A stretch of 61,031 nucleotides of DNA from a virus (IMGVR_UViG_3300028384_000043:1-61031), one strand, 5' to 3'. Counted from the stretch's first letter, positions 10,358 to 56,693 are shown. Notes: generated by a model from the letters alone, not told the origin. A program made the numbers and translations.

Positions 10358-12478
10358 ATGGCATATAGTAAAAAACCAAAGAAAAATTTAACAAAAGCCG
10401 AACAACTGACACTTGCAAAAAGTCAGTGGAATGCATATACACGGGCTAGAGATTCAGGCCATGAAGAGTACATACACCTCGCAAAAAAATGCGACATGTA
10501 CTACAGGGGAGACCAATGGGATGAGTTTGACATGCAGCAGCTTGATGACCAGGGTCGACCAGCTTTAACAATCAATACTATTTTACCAACTGTAAATGCA
10601 GTTCTAGCAGAACAAAGTTCAAAGAAAGCAGATATACAATTTAAACCTAGGGGCGGAGGTAACCAAGATGTTGCCGACGTTCTTACAAAAGTTTATGCCC
10701 AAGTAGCTGACAACAATAAGTTAGATTGGGTAGAGCAACAAGTTTTTTCTGATGGGTTAATTCAAGACAGAGGATGGTTTGATGTGCGTGTGGATTTTGA
10801 CGACCATGTAAACGGAGAAGTTAGAATAGAGTCAAAAGACCCATTAGATATTCTTATAGACCCAGATGCAAAACATTATGACCCAAGAACTTGGAATGAA
10901 ATATTTGAAACCAAGTGGATGAGTATAGATGAGATAGAAGAACAGTACGGACAAAAAGAAGCTGATCAGTTACGCATGCTAGCAGAAACTGGCACGACTT
11001 TAGGTGCTGACTCTATGGAGTTTGAAGAAGAAAGGTACGGAGACAGTGATGAGTATAACTACGGACAACAATATCCTGGAGATCCGGAGAACGCACGAAT
11101 GCTCAGGTCGATTAGAGTTATAGAAAGGCAGTACTATAAATTAAACGACTGTATGTTTTATGTAGACCCAGTAACTGGAGATAAAAGAGAAGTACCATAC
11201 AACTGGGGTAAAAAGAAAAGAGAGCAGTTTGCAGATCAGTTCGGATTAGATATTATTCAGAAAAAAATGCGAAAGGTCCGCTGGACCGTGACCGCGGACA
11301 CCGTGGTTTTATTCGATGACTGGTCACCGTATCATCATTTTACGCTCGTACCATTTTTTCCATACTTTCGAAGAGGTAAACCGTTCGGTATGGTCCGAAA
11401 CTTATTATCACCCCAAGAACAGCTCAACAAAATTACTTCTCAAGAGCTACATATAGTAAATACAACAGCTAATAGTGGTTGGATTGTAGAGAACGGTTCT
11501 CTTTCGGGCATGACTGCAGATGATCTAGAAGAACACGGAGCAGAGACAGGTTTAGTATTAGAGTTTAACCGTGGGTCTACACCACCTGCAAAAATACCAC
11601 CTAATCAAATACCAACAGGTTTAGATAGATTAGGACAAAAAGCTGCGTCAAATATTAAACAGATAAGTGGTATAACAGACGCTATGCTCGGTATGGATAG
11701 CCCAGAAGTTTCTGGTGTAGCTATAAATGCTAAACAAAATAGAGGTTCTTTGCTTTTACAAGTGCCATTAGATAACTTAGCTAAAACAAGACAGTATTTA
11801 GCAGAAAAAATATTAAACCTTGTACAAGCTTATTACACAGAAGAAAGGATTATACAAATCACCGACGAATCTGATCCTTATAAACCTAGAGAAAAACTAA
11901 GAATAAACCAACAAACTCCAGAAGGTCAGATTATAAATGACCTTACTATAGGAGAGTATGATGTAGTAGTTGGTACTGCTCCTGCTAGAGATAACTTTGA
12001 CGAAATGCAGTTTGCTGAAGCTATTGAACTTAGAGGCGTGGGTGTACCAATACCAAATGACATGATTGTTGAGTACTCACATTTATCACGTAAAGCAGAT
12101 ATAGCAGAAAGAATTAGACAAATGGAAGGTACTGCTCCTCCAACAGAAGAACAAGTACAATTACAACAGTTCCAGATGGAGTCACAAATTAGAAGCACAC
12201 AGCTTGAGATAGCTAAACTTGAAGCTGAAGTAACTAACTTACAGACTTCTGCAGAGCTAAATATGGCTAAAGCACAAAACGAACAAATAGATCCACAGTT
12301 GAAGGTTGCTGAATTACAAAGTAAAATTCAATCTAAACGTGAAGAACTGGGTTTACGCGAGAAGTTGTCAGAGTTGACAAACTCAATGCGTAAAGACCAA
12401 AGCGATACTGCAGCTGCTGCTAAATTAGCGGCTGCGGCCATGAAACCACAAGGAGGTAACAGAAATGGCGAAAGATAA
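10358..12478 (+). CDS. Portal protein
   Basis: About 700 aa after terL; YY.GDQW, GRPALTIN, SGVAI, C-terminal coiled coil. Confidence 0.9.
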   Translation: MAYSKKPKKNLTKAEQLTLAKSQWNAYTRARDSGHEEYIHLAKKCDMYYRGDQWDEFDMQQLDDQGRPALTINTILPTVNAVLAEQSSKKADIQFKPRGGGNQDVADVLTKVYAQVADNNKLDWVEQQVFSDGLIQDRGWFDVRVDFDDHVNGEVRIESKDPLDILIDPDAKHYDPRTWNEIFETKWMSIDEIEEQYGQKEADQLRMLAETGTTLGADSMEFEEERYGDSDEYNYGQQYPGDPENARMLRSIRVIERQYYKLNDCMFYVDPVTGDKREVPYNWGKKKREQFADQFGLDIIQKKMRKVRWTVTADTVVLFDDWSPYHHFTLVPFFPYFRRGKPFGMVRNLLSPQEQLNKITSQELHIVNTTANSGWIVENGSLSGMTADDLEEHGAETGLVLEFNRGSTPPAKIPPNQIPTGLDRLGQKAASNIKQISGITDAMLGMDSPEVSGVAINAKQNRGSLLLQVPLDNLAKTRQYLAEKILNLVQAYYTEERIIQITDESDPYKPREKLRINQQTPEGQIINDLTIGEYDVVVGTAPARDNFDEMQFAEAIELRGVGVPIPNDMIVEYSHLSRKADIAERIRQMEGTAPPTEEQVQLQQFQMESQIRSTQLEIAKLEAEVTNLQTSAELNMAKAQNEQIDPQLKVAELQSKIQSKREELGLREKLSELTNSMRKDQSDTAAAAKLAAAAMKPQGGNRNGER

Positions 12479-13505
12479 TACTACGACAGACGATAAGATC
12501 GAACTAGACGTAATGCCTGGGGCAGATCCAAAGACCGAAGAAGATGTAAAAGGTTTTGAAGTTGATATGAACTTTGAAGCTCCAGAAGAAGATGAAGTAG
12601 AATTTCCCAAGGAGGAAGAAATTGAAGAAGTCGAAGAACTTAAGGCTGACGAAGAACCATCTGAAGAGCCTGAAGCGGAAGCAGAAGAGGAAGTCGTTGA
12701 AGCTGCAGACGAAGTCGCAGAAGATACAGGAGAAGAAACAGTATTGGCAGAAGATGACGGAACTGCACAACAACCTGTTGAGCCAATACAAGAAGGACTT
12801 GATGAAGAAAAACAACCAATGATTCCAAAGTCTAGGTTTGATGAAGTCCTAGCAAAACAAAAAGCTTTACAAAAACAACTACAAGAAGCTACTAATCCCG
12901 TAGAAAAAATAGAAAATGCTCCTGAGTATGATTTTTCTGCTAAAGAAATAGAGTATCAAGAACATATTTTAAATGGCGAGCCAGAAAAAGCTGCTGCTCT
13001 TAGGTCAGAAATAAGAGAAGCAGAAAGAAAAACTATGCTATTTGAAGTGCAACAACAAATGGGCCAGACTGTACAACAAAGTACAGAAGCTGTTGCTTTA
13101 CAAAACAAAGCAATAGAATTACAAACTGCGCATCCTGAGTTAGATGAAAATAACGCTGCTTACAATGCGGACTTAACGCAAGAGGTTATGGACCTGAGAG
13201 ACGCGTTTATGATTCAAGGGTTTAGCGGGGCGGATGCTTTAGATAAAGCCGCTAAGTATGTTATAAAACCTGCTTCAGTAGTTGCAGAAACACCTGCACC
13301 TAATCTAGAACAGAAAGAAGTAGCACAGCGCAAAAAGGTAGCAAATACAAGTAAAAAATTAGCAGCAGCTGAATCTCAACCGCCCACAATGAAGACAGGT
13401 AAGCAGAAAGTTGAGAAGAAAGTTGATGTAAGTTTATTATCTGCAGATGAGTTTGAAGCTCTGCCGGATGAAACTTTACGTAGAATGCGTGGAGATTTCG
13501 GATAA
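12465..13505 (+). CDS. Capsid scaffolding protein
   Basis: Acidic, IPKSRFDEV motif, lies between portal and capsid genes. Confidence 0.75.
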   Translation: MAKDNTTTDDKIELDVMPGADPKTEEDVKGFEVDMNFEAPEEDEVEFPKEEEIEEVEELKADEEPSEEPEAEAEEEVVEAADEVAEDTGEETVLAEDDGTAQQPVEPIQEGLDEEKQPMIPKSRFDEVLAKQKALQKQLQEATNPVEKIENAPEYDFSAKEIEYQEHILNGEPEKAAALRSEIREAERKTMLFEVQQQMGQTVQQSTEAVALQNKAIELQTAHPELDENNAAYNADLTQEVMDLRDAFMIQGFSGADALDKAAKYVIKPASVVAETPAPNLEQKEVAQRKKVANTSKKLAAAESQPPTMKTGKQKVEKKVDVSLLSADEFEALPDETLRRMRGDFG

Positions 13506-13507
13506 AC

Positions 13508-13519
13508 TGTGGTATAAAT
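13508..13519 (+). promoter_or_regulatory. Putative extended -10 promoter for the capsid gene
   Basis: TGTGGTATAAAT just after the scaffold stop. Confidence 0.55.
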
Positions 13520-13527
13520 TAAACAAG

Positions 13528-13684
13528 TTCGCACGTAAGAGCGATATCTTACCGGGGTCGTGTCCGTAAAAAACGTTTTCGCCTGTTAGTGCGTAAAACT
13601 AACCGGAGTCGTACTCCGTAATTAACGAGAGCGTTTCCCCTACGACAGTGGGTATACGGATAAAAGTCGCTCCAAAAGTCGACT
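13528..13684 (+). ncRNA. Structured capsid-gene leader with tandem H-type pseudoknots
   Basis: Two 50-nt units with interleaved complementary stems and compensatory changes. Confidence 0.6.
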
Positions 13685-13715
13685 GGTTAATAACTTTAAT
13701 GATAGGAGAAATATC

Positions 13716-14861
13716 ATGGCAAATACTAACTTTGCTGCGTTGACCAGTGAGCAGTTAACCATCTGGTCTAGAGATTTCTGGCGTGTAGCTAGAAATATGT
13801 CCTTCATTAACCAATTCGCGGGTAGCGGTAACAACGCTATGGTTCAGAGAATATCTGAGCTAACCCAATCAGAAAAGGGAGCTAGAGCTGTATTAACACT
13901 TTTAGCTGACATGACTGGTGACGGTATTGTTGGAGACAACACTCTCGAAGGTAATGAAGAATCACTAAGAGCGTTCGACATAGTCGTAACAATCGACCAA
14001 CTAAGATTTGCGAACAGACTGTCAGGTAGACTGGCTGATCAAAAATCAGTTGTGAACTTTAGGGAACATTCAAGAGATGCTCTTGCTTATGCAATGGCTG
14101 ACAGAATGGACCAATTAGCATTCCTTACACTAAGTGGTATTGGATACAACTTGAAAAACAATGGTGGTCTAAGACCGTCAATGAATTCAGGTCAAAATCT
14201 AAACGATTTAGAGTTTGCAAGCACTATAAGTGCACCAACTTCTAATAGACATAGAAGAGTGGATGCAACTGGTGGTCTTGTAGCTGGTGATGTTACTGCT
14301 TTAGAAGCAGCTGACAAATTAAGCTACAGCACTATTGTAGATCTAAAAGCTTACGCTAAAGATAACTACATTAGAGGACTAAGAGGTGCGGGTAACGACG
14401 AGACATTCCATCTTTTCGTAACACCACAAGTAATGGCTGACCTAAAACTTGATTCAGACTTTCTTGCTAACGTAAGAAATGCTGGAGTAAGAGGACCAGG
14501 TTCAAGCTTGTTCTCAGGTTCATCATCTCTAATGGTTGATGGCATCATGGTTCACGAGTTTAGACATGTGTTTAATACAAGTGGCGCTTTATCTGGTACA
14601 TCATCAAACGCTGGTGCTGCTGGATATAAAGGTGGTGCAAATGCTGACGTAAACTACTCAAGATGTATTTTCGCTGGCGCACAATCATTAGCTATGGCAG
14701 ATATTGGAGTACCAGAAATAGTAGAAGACACATTCGACTATGGTAACCAAAACGGTATTTCAATTGGTAAAATATTCGGACTCAAGAAGCCAGTTTATCA
14801 TTCAGACCACACAGGTCAGGATGAAGACTTTGGTGTTATTGCGTTAGATGTTGCATACTAA
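13716..14861 (+). CDS. Major capsid protein (N4-gp56/DUF4043-like)
   Basis: GDNTLEGNEE, TIDQLRFA, FDYGN..GISIGKIFGLKK, DFGVI; AGGAG RBS. Confidence 0.92.
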   Translation: MANTNFAALTSEQLTIWSRDFWRVARNMSFINQFAGSGNNAMVQRISELTQSEKGARAVLTLLADMTGDGIVGDNTLEGNEESLRAFDIVVTIDQLRFANRLSGRLADQKSVVNFREHSRDALAYAMADRMDQLAFLTLSGIGYNLKNNGGLRPSMNSGQNLNDLEFASTISAPTSNRHRRVDATGGLVAGDVTALEAADKLSYSTIVDLKAYAKDNYIRGLRGAGNDETFHLFVTPQVMADLKLDSDFLANVRNAGVRGPGSSLFSGSSSLMVDGIMVHEFRHVFNTSGALSGTSSNAGAAGYKGGANADVNYSRCIFAGAQSLAMADIGVPEIVEDTFDYGNQNGISIGKIFGLKKPVYHSDHTGQDEDFGVIALDVAY

Positions 14862-14875
14862 TTGTGATATATTTT

Positions 14876-14905
14876 ATGGGTGGCTTTTATTAGCCACCCA
14901 TTTTT
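14876..14905 (+). terminator. Intrinsic terminator after the capsid gene
   Basis: ATGGGTGGCT/AGCCACCCAT stem followed by a T run. Confidence 0.8.
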
Positions 14906-14917
14906 AAGGAGGAAATT

Positions 14918-15244
14918 ATGTGGATAGTATCAAATGAAGACAAATCAGTAGCTTCTACTTGGGGCGCAGTTATACATTTAAAAGCTGGCGAGCCAAGACA
15001 AGTTGGTGATGATTTGGGTTTACTTTGCTTACAAGCCGGATGCACGGAGGTAAAAGACGTCAAAGAAGCTCCAGTAGTAGAAGAAGCTCCCGTTGAGGAA
15101 GTTGTCGAAGAAGCTGCTGAAGAAAAATCTTTTGAGGACATGACCAAAGTGGAACTAGAAGCTTATGGCAGAACTATTGGTATTGAACTCGATAGACGTA
15201 AAAAGAAATCAGAGTTAATCGCAGAACTAGAATCTGCACAATAA
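14918..15244 (+). CDS. Hypothetical protein with a Rho-N/HeH-like C-terminus
   Basis: EDMTKVELEAYGRTIGIEL..KKSELIAEL. Confidence 0.65.
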   Translation: MWIVSNEDKSVASTWGAVIHLKAGEPRQVGDDLGLLCLQAGCTEVKDVKEAPVVEEAPVEEVVEEAAEEKSFEDMTKVELEAYGRTIGIELDRRKKKSELIAELESAQ

Positions 15245-36018: not shown

Positions 36019-36032
36019 CATATAATCTATCT

Positions 36033-36215
36033 ATGGCCACGGTTAAAGAAACATTAGCAAAGATCGAAGCGCACGAAAGAGAGTGCAACATTCGATATTC
36101 TACTATTGAAAAACGCTTAGACAAAGGAGACGCTAAGTTTGACCGTATGGACACTAAGTTCACCACAATGATTATAGGTGTGTATCTACTTATCATTGGG
36201 TCTAATTTATTATAG
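36033..36215 (+). CDS. Small protein with a C-terminal TM helix
   Basis: HERECNIRY..I..RL..G..KF plus hydrophobic tail. Confidence 0.65.
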   Translation: MATVKETLAKIEAHERECNIRYSTIEKRLDKGDAKFDRMDTKFTTMIIGVYLLIIGSNLL

Positions 36216-36224
36216 GAGGTAATT

Positions 36225-36473
36225 ATGGCAAAAGCCGAAAAGCAAGTACCACAAGTAATCAACTTTGATGGTAAACAATACGATATATCTAAAATGACTG
36301 ACCGCGTAGCCGAGCAGTTTAACATGTTAGTTAGACTACAAAGCGAGTGGCAGGATGCTAGTTTTAACCTTAAGAAGGTAGAAGCAGCACAGAAAACCGT
36401 TGTCACAGAACTGCAAGTCTTTATGAAAGAAGACAATATCAAAGCAGTAGACGACAGGATAATAACTCCGTGA
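36225..36473 (+). CDS. Hypothetical protein (possible fibre assembly chaperone)
   Basis: AGGAGG RBS; I.FDGKQY.IS.M. Confidence 0.65.
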   Translation: MAKAEKQVPQVINFDGKQYDISKMTDRVAEQFNMLVRLQSEWQDASFNLKKVEAAQKTVVTELQVFMKEDNIKAVDDRIITP

Positions 36474-56507: not shown

Positions 56508-56693
56508 TTAAATCTCCTTATCTAAGTATACTTCCTCTCTATCTATCCGTACAGATTTGTCTGCCTGGAACCCTAGTTTGCATTGGGTAGGTGATATATT
56601 AGTTACCGTTACAGTACAGATTACTCTTCCATCCTGTTGTACGACAACCTTGTCACCTTTCTTTCGAGTCAGTATTAAGTTTTTATTTGTCAT
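56508..56693 (-). CDS. csrA: Carbon storage regulator CsrA/RsmA homolog
   Basis: LILTRKKGD, VTV, KLGFQA...V.IDREEVY. Confidence 0.85.
   Translation of the reverse strand: MTNKNLILTRKKGDKVVVQQDGRVICTVTVTNISPTQCKLGFQADKSVRIDREEVYLDKEI

Follow-up and report, generated by a model that had tools for sequence, protein, structure and literature searches.

The complete virus genome IMGVR_UViG_3300028384_000043:1-61031, which has direct terminal repeats and whose whole stretch of 61,031 base pairs (bp) is referred to here as the window, carries a conserved RNA fold on the messenger RNA (mRNA) strand before the gene for its major capsid protein (MCP; 13716–14861, plus strand; phrog_334, E 1.2e-76; PF13252, E 1.6e-36). 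The leader element (13529–13684, plus strand) lies inside a gap of 210 nucleotides (nt) at 13506–13715, wider than any other gap in the first 27 kb of the structural module on the plus strand, which is otherwise tightly packed. Covariation among related leaders shows its first ~160 nt to be composed of three consecutive units, each with one type-A and one type-B pseudoknot. The element is not coding, because the gap contains stops in all three plus frames and because the length of the element among relatives (161–171 nt) changes in steps that are not multiples of three. With respect to function there is, in our view, about as much to be said for as against the reading that we put first from the sequence context, namely that the array would be a cis-acting leader, which stabilises the capsid message and serves as a platform for its translation.

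Covariation in the capsid leaders of relatives

A search of IMG/VR with the capsid protein yielded at least 593 relatives, the best 80 of these at least 593 loci showing 82–98% protein identity. A DNA pattern derived from the invariant third unit matched at least 120 stretches; among the matches listed every true one is located immediately before a capsid gene, and some ten are chance matches in unrelated coding DNA. Both searches together provided 100 distinct leaders (the marine set). Repeating the capsid search with the most divergent member as query contributed 80 more loci (73–100% identical to that query), and no close DNA relatives were found among cultured phages. The covariance model R1, which was built from nested hairpins only and from which the knot-forming helices were left out, has exactly one match in each of the 100 sources (E ≤ 2.6e-30) and matches 79 of the 80 loci of the divergent MCP search, the exception being a locus without upstream sequence (L208). 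The third unit stands out by the motif CGU..CCC..ACGA..GGGUAYACGG..C.CC, which is invariant over the 100 sequences at MCP identities down to 82%. This invariance dissolves in the more divergent set, in which UAYAC varies.

The six-pseudoknot model was written on the window sequence and counted on four alignments, with slid partners as the control. In the structure-blind MAFFT alignment of 60 sequences 95.0% of the cells are paired (31–43% when slid), a double change is seen in 30 of 48 pairs, and the covariation score is 0.361 versus 0.158, reached by none of 500 shuffles. The corresponding values are 89.1% (slid 33–44%), 29 of 48 and 0.364 versus 0.157 (0/500) for the MAFFT alignment of 100 sequences; 94.2% (slid 31–42%), 30 of 47 and 0.415 versus 0.172 (0/500) for the model-based alignment of 97 distinct sequences; and 87.0% (slid 34–41%), 35 of 50 and 0.395 versus 0.161 (0/500) for the divergent set of 49 distinct sequences. 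Model-based alignments may favour the hairpins that have been modelled, and the six knot-forming helices, which were not modelled, were therefore counted separately. In the model-based alignment they pair in 91.1% of the cells versus 23–46% when slid and have double changes in 7 of 21 pairs (127 cells); none of 500 shuffles attains the covariation score of these helices, and 45 of 500 attain the less stringent number of pairs changed on both sides.

The interleaved stems on the mRNA strand and the compensatory changes that the original prediction, made from the sequence alone, had expected in the capsid leaders of relatives are borne out by the pair counts on these four alignments. Among the non-Watson-Crick cells G-U/U-G (129) far outnumber A-C/C-A (16), which indicates that the selected structure is an RNA on the plus strand, in the sense of the capsid mRNA. 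Compensatory changes are found in both helices of knots 1, 3, 4, and 6. Folding of the single sequence gave a z-score of only −2.2 and long-range helices that are not kept in relatives; this fold was not used.

Anatomy of the six pseudoknots

All six elements have, in the window sequence, the H-type strand order (S1-5′, S2-5′, S1-3′, S2-3′). Type A has the layout UCGY, 1–3 nt, S2 5′ strand, RCGA, YA, S2 3′ strand, the hairpin loop pairing backwards. Type B is a 4-bp hairpin with a UCGN loop, whose pairing partner N′CGA lies beyond an A-rich linker of six bases. The type-A hairpin of units 1 and 2 borders with its 3′ strand directly on the type-B hairpin, and on this model each of the two units could stack into one rod of ~18 bp.

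Units 1 and 2 (13528–13576 and 13578–13628) are the two units of ~50 nt from which the element was first recognised, and they are indeed present. Identical at 37 of 51 positions, with an alignment score of 56 as compared to 10.9 ± 5.5 after shuffling (reached by 0 of 500), they are, by this sequence comparison, a genuine tandem duplication. The compensatory comparison within the genome, GTAAGA/TCTTAC versus GTTAGT/ACTAAC, is also correct. The sequence similarity of unit 3 to units 1 and 2 is not significant (72/500 and 17/500 shuffles, respectively, reach the score), and unit 3 is like them in architecture only. Patterns derived from the two units give no further match in the genome; this test is circular, so that the case rests on the relatives.

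Pseudoknot 1 (type A, 13529–13552, plus strand) consists of S1 13529–32/13541–44 (UCGC/GCGA) and S2 13535–40/13547–52, with UA as L3. S2 shows compensatory changes in 6 of 6 pairs and is paired in 99.0% of the cells. In S1, which was outside the alignment model, the fourth pair is UA in 53, CG in 35, GC in 3, and something else in 6 of the 97 sequences, and another of its pairs goes from GC to UA in the divergent set. An L3 of only 2–3 nt for an S1 of 3–4 bp is presumably tight and feasible.

Pseudoknot 2 (type B, 13553–13575, plus strand) has an S1 (13553–56/13563–66) with compensatory changes in 4 of 4 pairs, the loop of which (13559–61, CGU) pairs across an A-rich linker with 13573–75 (ACG). 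At least three contiguous Watson-Crick pairs can be formed by this S2 in 62 of the 97 sequences, with the variants CGUU/AACG, CGUG/CACG, CGUA/UACG, CGCU/AGCG, CGAU/AUCG, and CAGU/ACUG, and only two in the other 35, mostly with a U·U mismatch; the mean is 3.10 pairs versus 2.40 with shuffled tails. The loop-to-tail stem of knot 2 is therefore partly supported by the sequences. Knots 1, 3, and 4 stand as predicted for units 1 and 2, so that of the four pseudoknots originally proposed there only the second stem of knot 2 has to be qualified.

Pseudoknot 3 (type A, 13580–13603, plus strand) has in this genome a 3-bp S1 (13580–82/13591–93) and a 6-bp S2 (13585–90/13598–603), the family consensus being 4 bp for S1 (CGCC/GGCG) and 4 bp for S2. 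Compensatory changes occur in 3 of 4 pairs of S1 (CG 72/UA 25; GC 95/AU 2; CG 81/UA 5), which is paired in 96.4% of the cells, and in 4 of 4 pairs of S2 (93.8% paired). Pseudoknot 4 (type B, 13604–13628, plus strand) is formed by S1 13604–07/13615–18, compensatory in 4 of 4 pairs, and by the loop UCGU at 13609–12, which pairs with ACGA at 13625–28 across the linker UAAUUA. This second helix was outside the alignment model; it is paired in 94.6% of the cells and contains the exchanges GC 84/AU 12 and UA 81/CG 11.

Downstream of unit 2 a further domain had been proposed, made of the helices GAGCG/CGCTC and AGTCG/CGACT. The region is structured as predicted and was in part mis-paired: it is composed of two more pseudoknots (13632–13652 and 13658–13684). 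The AGTCG/CGACT helix is confirmed in the alignment of 97 sequences. The GAGCG/CGCTC helix (13629–33 with 13668–72) pairs in 74.8% of the cells and was rejected, since 2 of its 5 pairs cannot form in 54 and 45, respectively, of the 100 sequences; position 13671, the sole covarying site claimed for it, pairs without exception with 13660 in knot 6 (97 sequences).

Pseudoknot 5 (type A, 13632–13652, plus strand) has S1 13632–34/13642–44 (CGU/ACG) and S2 13638–40/13650–52 (CCC/GGG). S1 is invariant in the 97 and in the 49 sequences and thus without covariation evidence within the marine clade. S2 is nearly invariant in the closer clade and compensatory in 4 of 4 pairs in the divergent set (e.g., CG 30/UA 16/AU 3). 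In pseudoknot 6 (type B-like, 13658–13684, plus strand) S1 is 13658–60/13671–73 (GGA/UCC), S2 13665–69/13680–84 (AGUCG/CGACU), and L3 AAAAGU. The third pair of S1, a helix outside the alignment model, is AU in 50, GC in 34, and GU in 13 of the 97 sequences and unpaired in none; in the divergent set it is AU in 15, GC in 12, GU in 11, and UA in 5. S2 is compensatory in 4 of 5 pairs.

Possible functions of the leader

The gap is bordered at its 5′ side by a scaffold-like open reading frame (ORF; 12465–13505, plus strand) without family match, just upstream of which lies the portal gene. Within the gap a promoter-like extended −10 sequence (TGgTATAAA, 13510–13518, plus strand) ends 10 nt before the first pair of the element. 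T13510, T13513, and A13514 are nearly invariant in the alignment of 60 sequences; 114 of 117 distinct upstream sequences have a TAnnnT hexamer 2–12 nt before the element, which is accompanied by TG in 57 cases; and divergent clades have TTGCnn-17-TAnnAT at the same place. From these positions transcription probably starts near 13525, ~4 nt before the first helix. The element is followed by an unstructured A/U-rich spacer (13685–13715, plus strand), in which UUAA is present at 13687–90 and 13696–99 and the Shine-Dalgarno sequence AGGAG at 13704–08, 7 nt before the ATG; in the alignments this region varies and is rich in A/T, a box of the GGAG type being conserved. Nineteen nt after the MCP stop there is an intrinsic-terminator-like hairpin (14880–14906, plus strand; GGGTGGCT/AGCCACCC, loop TTTATT, T-run) with a GC-rich stem of 8 bp, which a terminator scan did not list. 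A hairpin with a T-run is found within 90 nt of the MCP stop in 40 of 54 distinct relatives, the stems covarying and their sequences being different. In contigs from four RNA libraries of four studies the leader is joined to the MCP coding sequence, although DNA carry-over is possible. Two contigs (X2 and X14) have no cover upstream of ~13567, but they continue with the sequence of a relative, which says nothing on the transcript start.

A role in stabilisation and translation fits this anatomy because of the −10 sequence upstream, the A/U-rich stretch with AGGAG downstream and the terminator after the gene. The leader would then be the 5′ end of a largely monocistronic capsid mRNA, whose ends are predicted to be set by the extended −10 promoter and by the terminator after the MCP gene. 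RNase E, RppH, and RNase J depend on the 5′ end of their substrates, and 5′ roadblocks are known to stabilise mRNA (PMC3997798). The array would leave almost no free 5′ end or long single strand and could thereby hinder decay from the 5′ end by these enzymes, its A-rich single strands being hidden from 5′-end-dependent decay, and its helices of at most 6 bp would be too short to be substrates of RNase III. The A/U-rich stretch and AGGAG would be kept open for ribosomes. Array and 3′ terminator hairpin together may thus give rise to a long-lived and heavily translated mRNA of the most abundant virion protein. The original prediction had named a stabilising, a translation-enhancing, and a protein-binding role; as far as can be judged from the sequence, all three fit the anatomy and nothing separates them.

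Several points weigh against a stabilising leader. Loops and junctions are strongly conserved in sequence (CGAUA, UCGU loops, GGGUAYACGG), for which a plain stabiliser would have no need and which points to tertiary contacts or to a specific partner. As a motif the −10 sequence is poorly defined, TAnnnT being easily found in A/T-rich DNA; there is no −35, and a scan for sigma-70 promoters did not list the site at 13510–13518. Genome-wide TGTGNTATAAW is not enriched (14 found versus 15.8 expected). In this clade no terminator is present between the scaffold gene and the promoter, and read-through transcripts would hold the element internally. The RNA data are assembled contigs, which show neither the ends nor the strand nor the levels of transcripts. 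Finally, covariation cannot tell whether the two helices of each knot are formed simultaneously or alternate.

Of the known systems the leader of gene 32 of phage T4 is one of the closest in layout: an H-type pseudoknot on its 5′ side precedes an unstructured region rich in A+U, which contains UUAA(A) repeats and extends to the ribosome-binding site, and the T4 gene 32 mRNA is unusually stable (PMC3014915). The same layout is seen here: knot 6 ends at 13684 and is followed by UUAA (13687–90 and 13696–99) and AGGAG (13704–08). The two leaders are not related in sequence or via Rfam, however, and they differ in that there is one pseudoknot in T4 and six in three units here. Moreover, T4 gene 32 encodes a single-strand-binding protein that binds its own leader, whereas the gene served here encodes a PF13252 capsid protein, for which a binder is only a candidate. 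With 5′ stem-loops of the ompA type and other 5′ roadblocks the element shares the location of a structure at or near the 5′ end of an abundant message with a 3′ terminator (PMC3997798), the start being a predicted one here, but known 5′ stabilisers are simple hairpins or bound ribosomes or proteins rather than a 160-nt array of pseudoknots with short helices and conserved loops.

Chains of small H-type pseudoknots with stems of 3–6 bp occur in the upstream pseudoknot domain of the tobamovirus 3′ untranslated region (UTR) and in transfer-messenger RNA (tmRNA), and the tobamovirus chain has been linked to mRNA stability and translation. From the capsid leader these chains are set apart by kingdom, by partners, and by position, the capsid element being a 5′ leader and not a 3′ UTR. 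As anticipated from the sequence alone, there is no match to a known RNA family: Rfam 15 gave 0 matches at the gathering score in the whole window and in 12 related loci, and at E ≤ 10 only two irrelevant matches within 13300–13900, which lie mostly or wholly outside the element. ARAGORN did not find a transfer RNA or tmRNA.

The conservation of the loop sequences hints at a binding partner. Control of translation through a bound protein is possible, though we are doubtful; the array would then be an operator on which a regulator docks to time or limit the synthesis of capsid protein. In its order of parts, with an A/U-rich UUAA stretch leading from the pseudoknots to the ribosome-binding site, the leader resembles the T4 gene 32 operator (PMC3014915), and by analogy with gp32 on the pseudoknot leader of T4 gene 32 the capsid or scaffold protein could act autogenously. 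The other candidate is a phage CsrA homolog, which could bridge ACGGAU (13656–61) and the GGA of the Shine-Dalgarno sequence. The phage itself encodes such a homolog, a CsrA-family protein of 61 amino acids (56508–56693, minus strand; PF02599, 44.7 bits versus a cut-off of 27, match 56520–56678), the gene of which sits between a DNA polymerase-like and a primase/helicase-like ORF. It keeps the LILTR and REEVY motifs, and GUAYACGGAU resembles the CsrA/RsmE site. Of 10 related contigs 6 carry a csrA gene, among them all 4 with a completeness of at least 85%.

More distant phages point in the same direction. Of five distant genera sampled that share this capsid family, four have an annotated CsrA-like gene just upstream of the MCP gene, between portal/scaffold genes and capsid gene: Burkholderia phage DC1 (L375 2069–2263), Erwinia phage PEp14 (L378 2149–2340), Klebsiella phage ZX1 (L365 142–351), and Ralstonia phage Gerry (L376 1303–1500). 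In these four the capsid gene is preceded by a gap of 98–189 nt; the exception is Vibrio D60, without a CsrA-like gene before the MCP gene. The csrA gene is a neighbour of the capsid gene in Bcep22-like, Lastavirus, Pavtokvirus, and Cimandefvirus phages, and in the marine clade it is conserved at another place in the genome. Judging by the gene order in the distant phages, capsid expression and phage CsrA may be linked. That phages can carry csrA is already known: a review, which found it in only 30 of 2517 phages, names Ralstonia GP4, a Burkholderia DC1 entry, and papers on Bcep22 and Klebsiella SopranoGao (PMC7366521).

The evidence on the leader side is less favourable to CsrA. Like CsrA/RsmA-controlled leaders, the element is found in a genome with csrA, its Shine-Dalgarno sequence includes GGA, and a second site, ACGGAU, is present ~45 nt upstream in about half of the leaders. 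Unlike in CsrA/RsmA-controlled leaders, this upstream GGA (13658) is not conserved, being present in only 52 of 100 leaders (mean GGA count per leader 2.07), and it is helical, located in helix S1 of knot 6 rather than in a loop. In the other leaders it is GGG or GGU with a compensating partner, which shows that the pairing and not GGA is conserved, and csrA is still present in genomes with GGG leaders. Conversely, related leaders occur in four complete KPP25-like genomes in which no CsrA match was found, and the leaders beside csrA in PEp14 and ZX1 are short and different-looking. A tblastn search with the 61-amino-acid homolog returned a single phage record and is too insensitive to map csrA. 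We regard as unlikely the fuller version of the operator reading, according to which the element would belong to an unrecognised translational circuit for capsid genes in a large lineage of PF13252 podophages, a CsrA-family, capsid, or scaffold protein reading the UCGY/RCGA knots and setting timing and stoichiometry of capsid synthesis.

We give little credence to a third explanation, that the element is a cis-acting RNA comparable to put of phage HK022, which would modify RNA polymerase for read-through of the post-capsid terminator into the ~28-kb tail module. The position immediately downstream of a promoter-like site and the conserved terminator after the MCP gene, ahead of a long and tightly packed operon, would suit such an RNA. 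However, put RNAs are two stem-loops rather than arrays of pseudoknots, there was no Rfam match, and the constant distance to the A/U-rich region of the ribosome-binding site is better suited to a role in translation or stability.

Scarcely more credible, and if anything less so, is a function in trans, as mimic of a type III antitoxin (ToxI-like) or as decoy, i.e., as a sponge that takes up an RNA-binding protein or an RNase of the host. Antitoxins of the ToxI type consist of pseudoknotted repeats, and tandemly repeated pseudoknot units with A-rich linkers are indeed what is found here. The units have diverged, however (units 1 and 2 being identical at 37 of 51 positions), each with its own covariation, and the similarity of unit 3 is not significant. 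Between array and ribosome-binding site there is no terminator, the place before the MCP gene is fixed in every relative, and the neighbours are scaffold and capsid genes; PADLOC had no match among the four proteins submitted (three neighbouring ORFs and the CsrA homolog), nor did Rfam yield a ToxI match. Just as improbable is a ligand-sensing riboswitch, or a self-cleaving ribozyme that would process read-through transcripts, with the third unit as core: the motif of this unit is invariant over 100 sequences and type-B knots resemble the preQ1-I architecture, but the invariance is lost in the more divergent set, no riboswitch or ribozyme was matched in Rfam even at E ≤ 10, neither a covarying alternative pairing that sequesters the Shine-Dalgarno sequence nor a leader terminator is present, and the type-B hairpin loops of 5–7 nt are without the longer loop in which preQ1-I carries its ligand-contacting bases.

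Related leaders in other phages and neighbouring features

The closest cultured phages are KPP25/phiR18 (50% capsid identity), phiA008, and AP1, which have gaps of 160–200 nt before the capsid gene. With R1 the best E values for phiR18, phiA008, and AP1 are 0.16–0.43 and not significant, and homology with the leaders of cultured phages therefore rests only on a test with a type-A descriptor (CGY, S2, RCGA, S2′). For this test a capsid search from phiR18 provided 80 IMG/VR loci, 61–74% identical, plus one 100%-identical contig, which is the KPP25 genome; a capsid search from phiA008 returned only that phage. The descriptor was derived from the marine set, so that its 92 matches in 100 leaders there are circular and the KPP25-like clade is the real test. 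In this clade a related motif, UCGY...RCGAYA, is found before the MCP gene, and the descriptor matches 52 of 66 distinct leaders versus 4.1% of dinucleotide shuffles. Of 74 descriptor matches 57 lie 60–99 nt before the ATG, which is the position of knot 5 in the marine clade, and as counterpart of this knot UCGC/GCGA alternates with UCGU/ACGA. The fourth S1 pair, which was left free, is C-G in 29 and U-A in 14 of 58 matches and a standard pair in 45 of the 58. A recognisable core motif is thus present also in a clade with a capsid protein only 50% identical, one to which cultured Pseudomonas phages belong.

Few structured leaders of double-stranded DNA phages have, to our knowledge, a demonstrated role. 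A review of 2010 considered the T4 gene 32 pseudoknot to be possibly the only viral one used for translational autoregulation (PMC3014915). The array described here is much larger and modular, and it precedes the capsid gene of an abundant marine phage group with at least 593 relatives in IMG/VR. A survey of IMG/VR from 2023 lists 10,006 candidate structured RNAs, some of them upstream of capsid and gp32 genes; five are upstream of capsid genes of the PHA00201 type, which is another capsid family, and where these five are named no structures are given (PMC10690425). In the full-text literature, as far as it could be accessed, no description of this leader was found, although the motif may already be among those 10,006 entries (PMC10690425). 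Pseudoknotted phage mRNA leaders are known; the modular three-by-two architecture we have not seen described. If confirmed, the array would be a new and well-supported RNA family for Rfam. As a stabilising leader it would be a compact, RNase-III-proof means to stabilise and load bacterial mRNA and as such a useful expression part; as an operator it would give the so far unexplained CsrA genes in this lineage of phages a target that can be tested.

Some further observations were made on the way. In a subclade of the KPP25-like phages (L286–L291, L294, L297, L301, L305, L340, and others) a near-constant sequence, GGAG-NNNCGAC-CUCC-UAAAAA-GUCG, is found, which is the type-B design of knots 2 and 4 and which is preceded by a hairpin with a CGAUA loop. 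Tiny ORFs have been annotated inside capsid leaders, in phiR18 (FDH89_gp71, 39 amino acids; L082 1292–1411) and in DC1 (gp47, 29 amino acids; L375 2264–2353); both are probably spurious calls over non-coding leader RNA. In the window itself the terminator-like hairpin after the capsid gene is directly followed by a small ORF (14918–15244, 108 amino acids) without Pfam match, the C-terminal half of which has weak PHROG matches to families of Arc-like repressors and of endonuclease VII. A second large gap in the tightly packed structural module is located at 36019–36469 and is 451 nt long.

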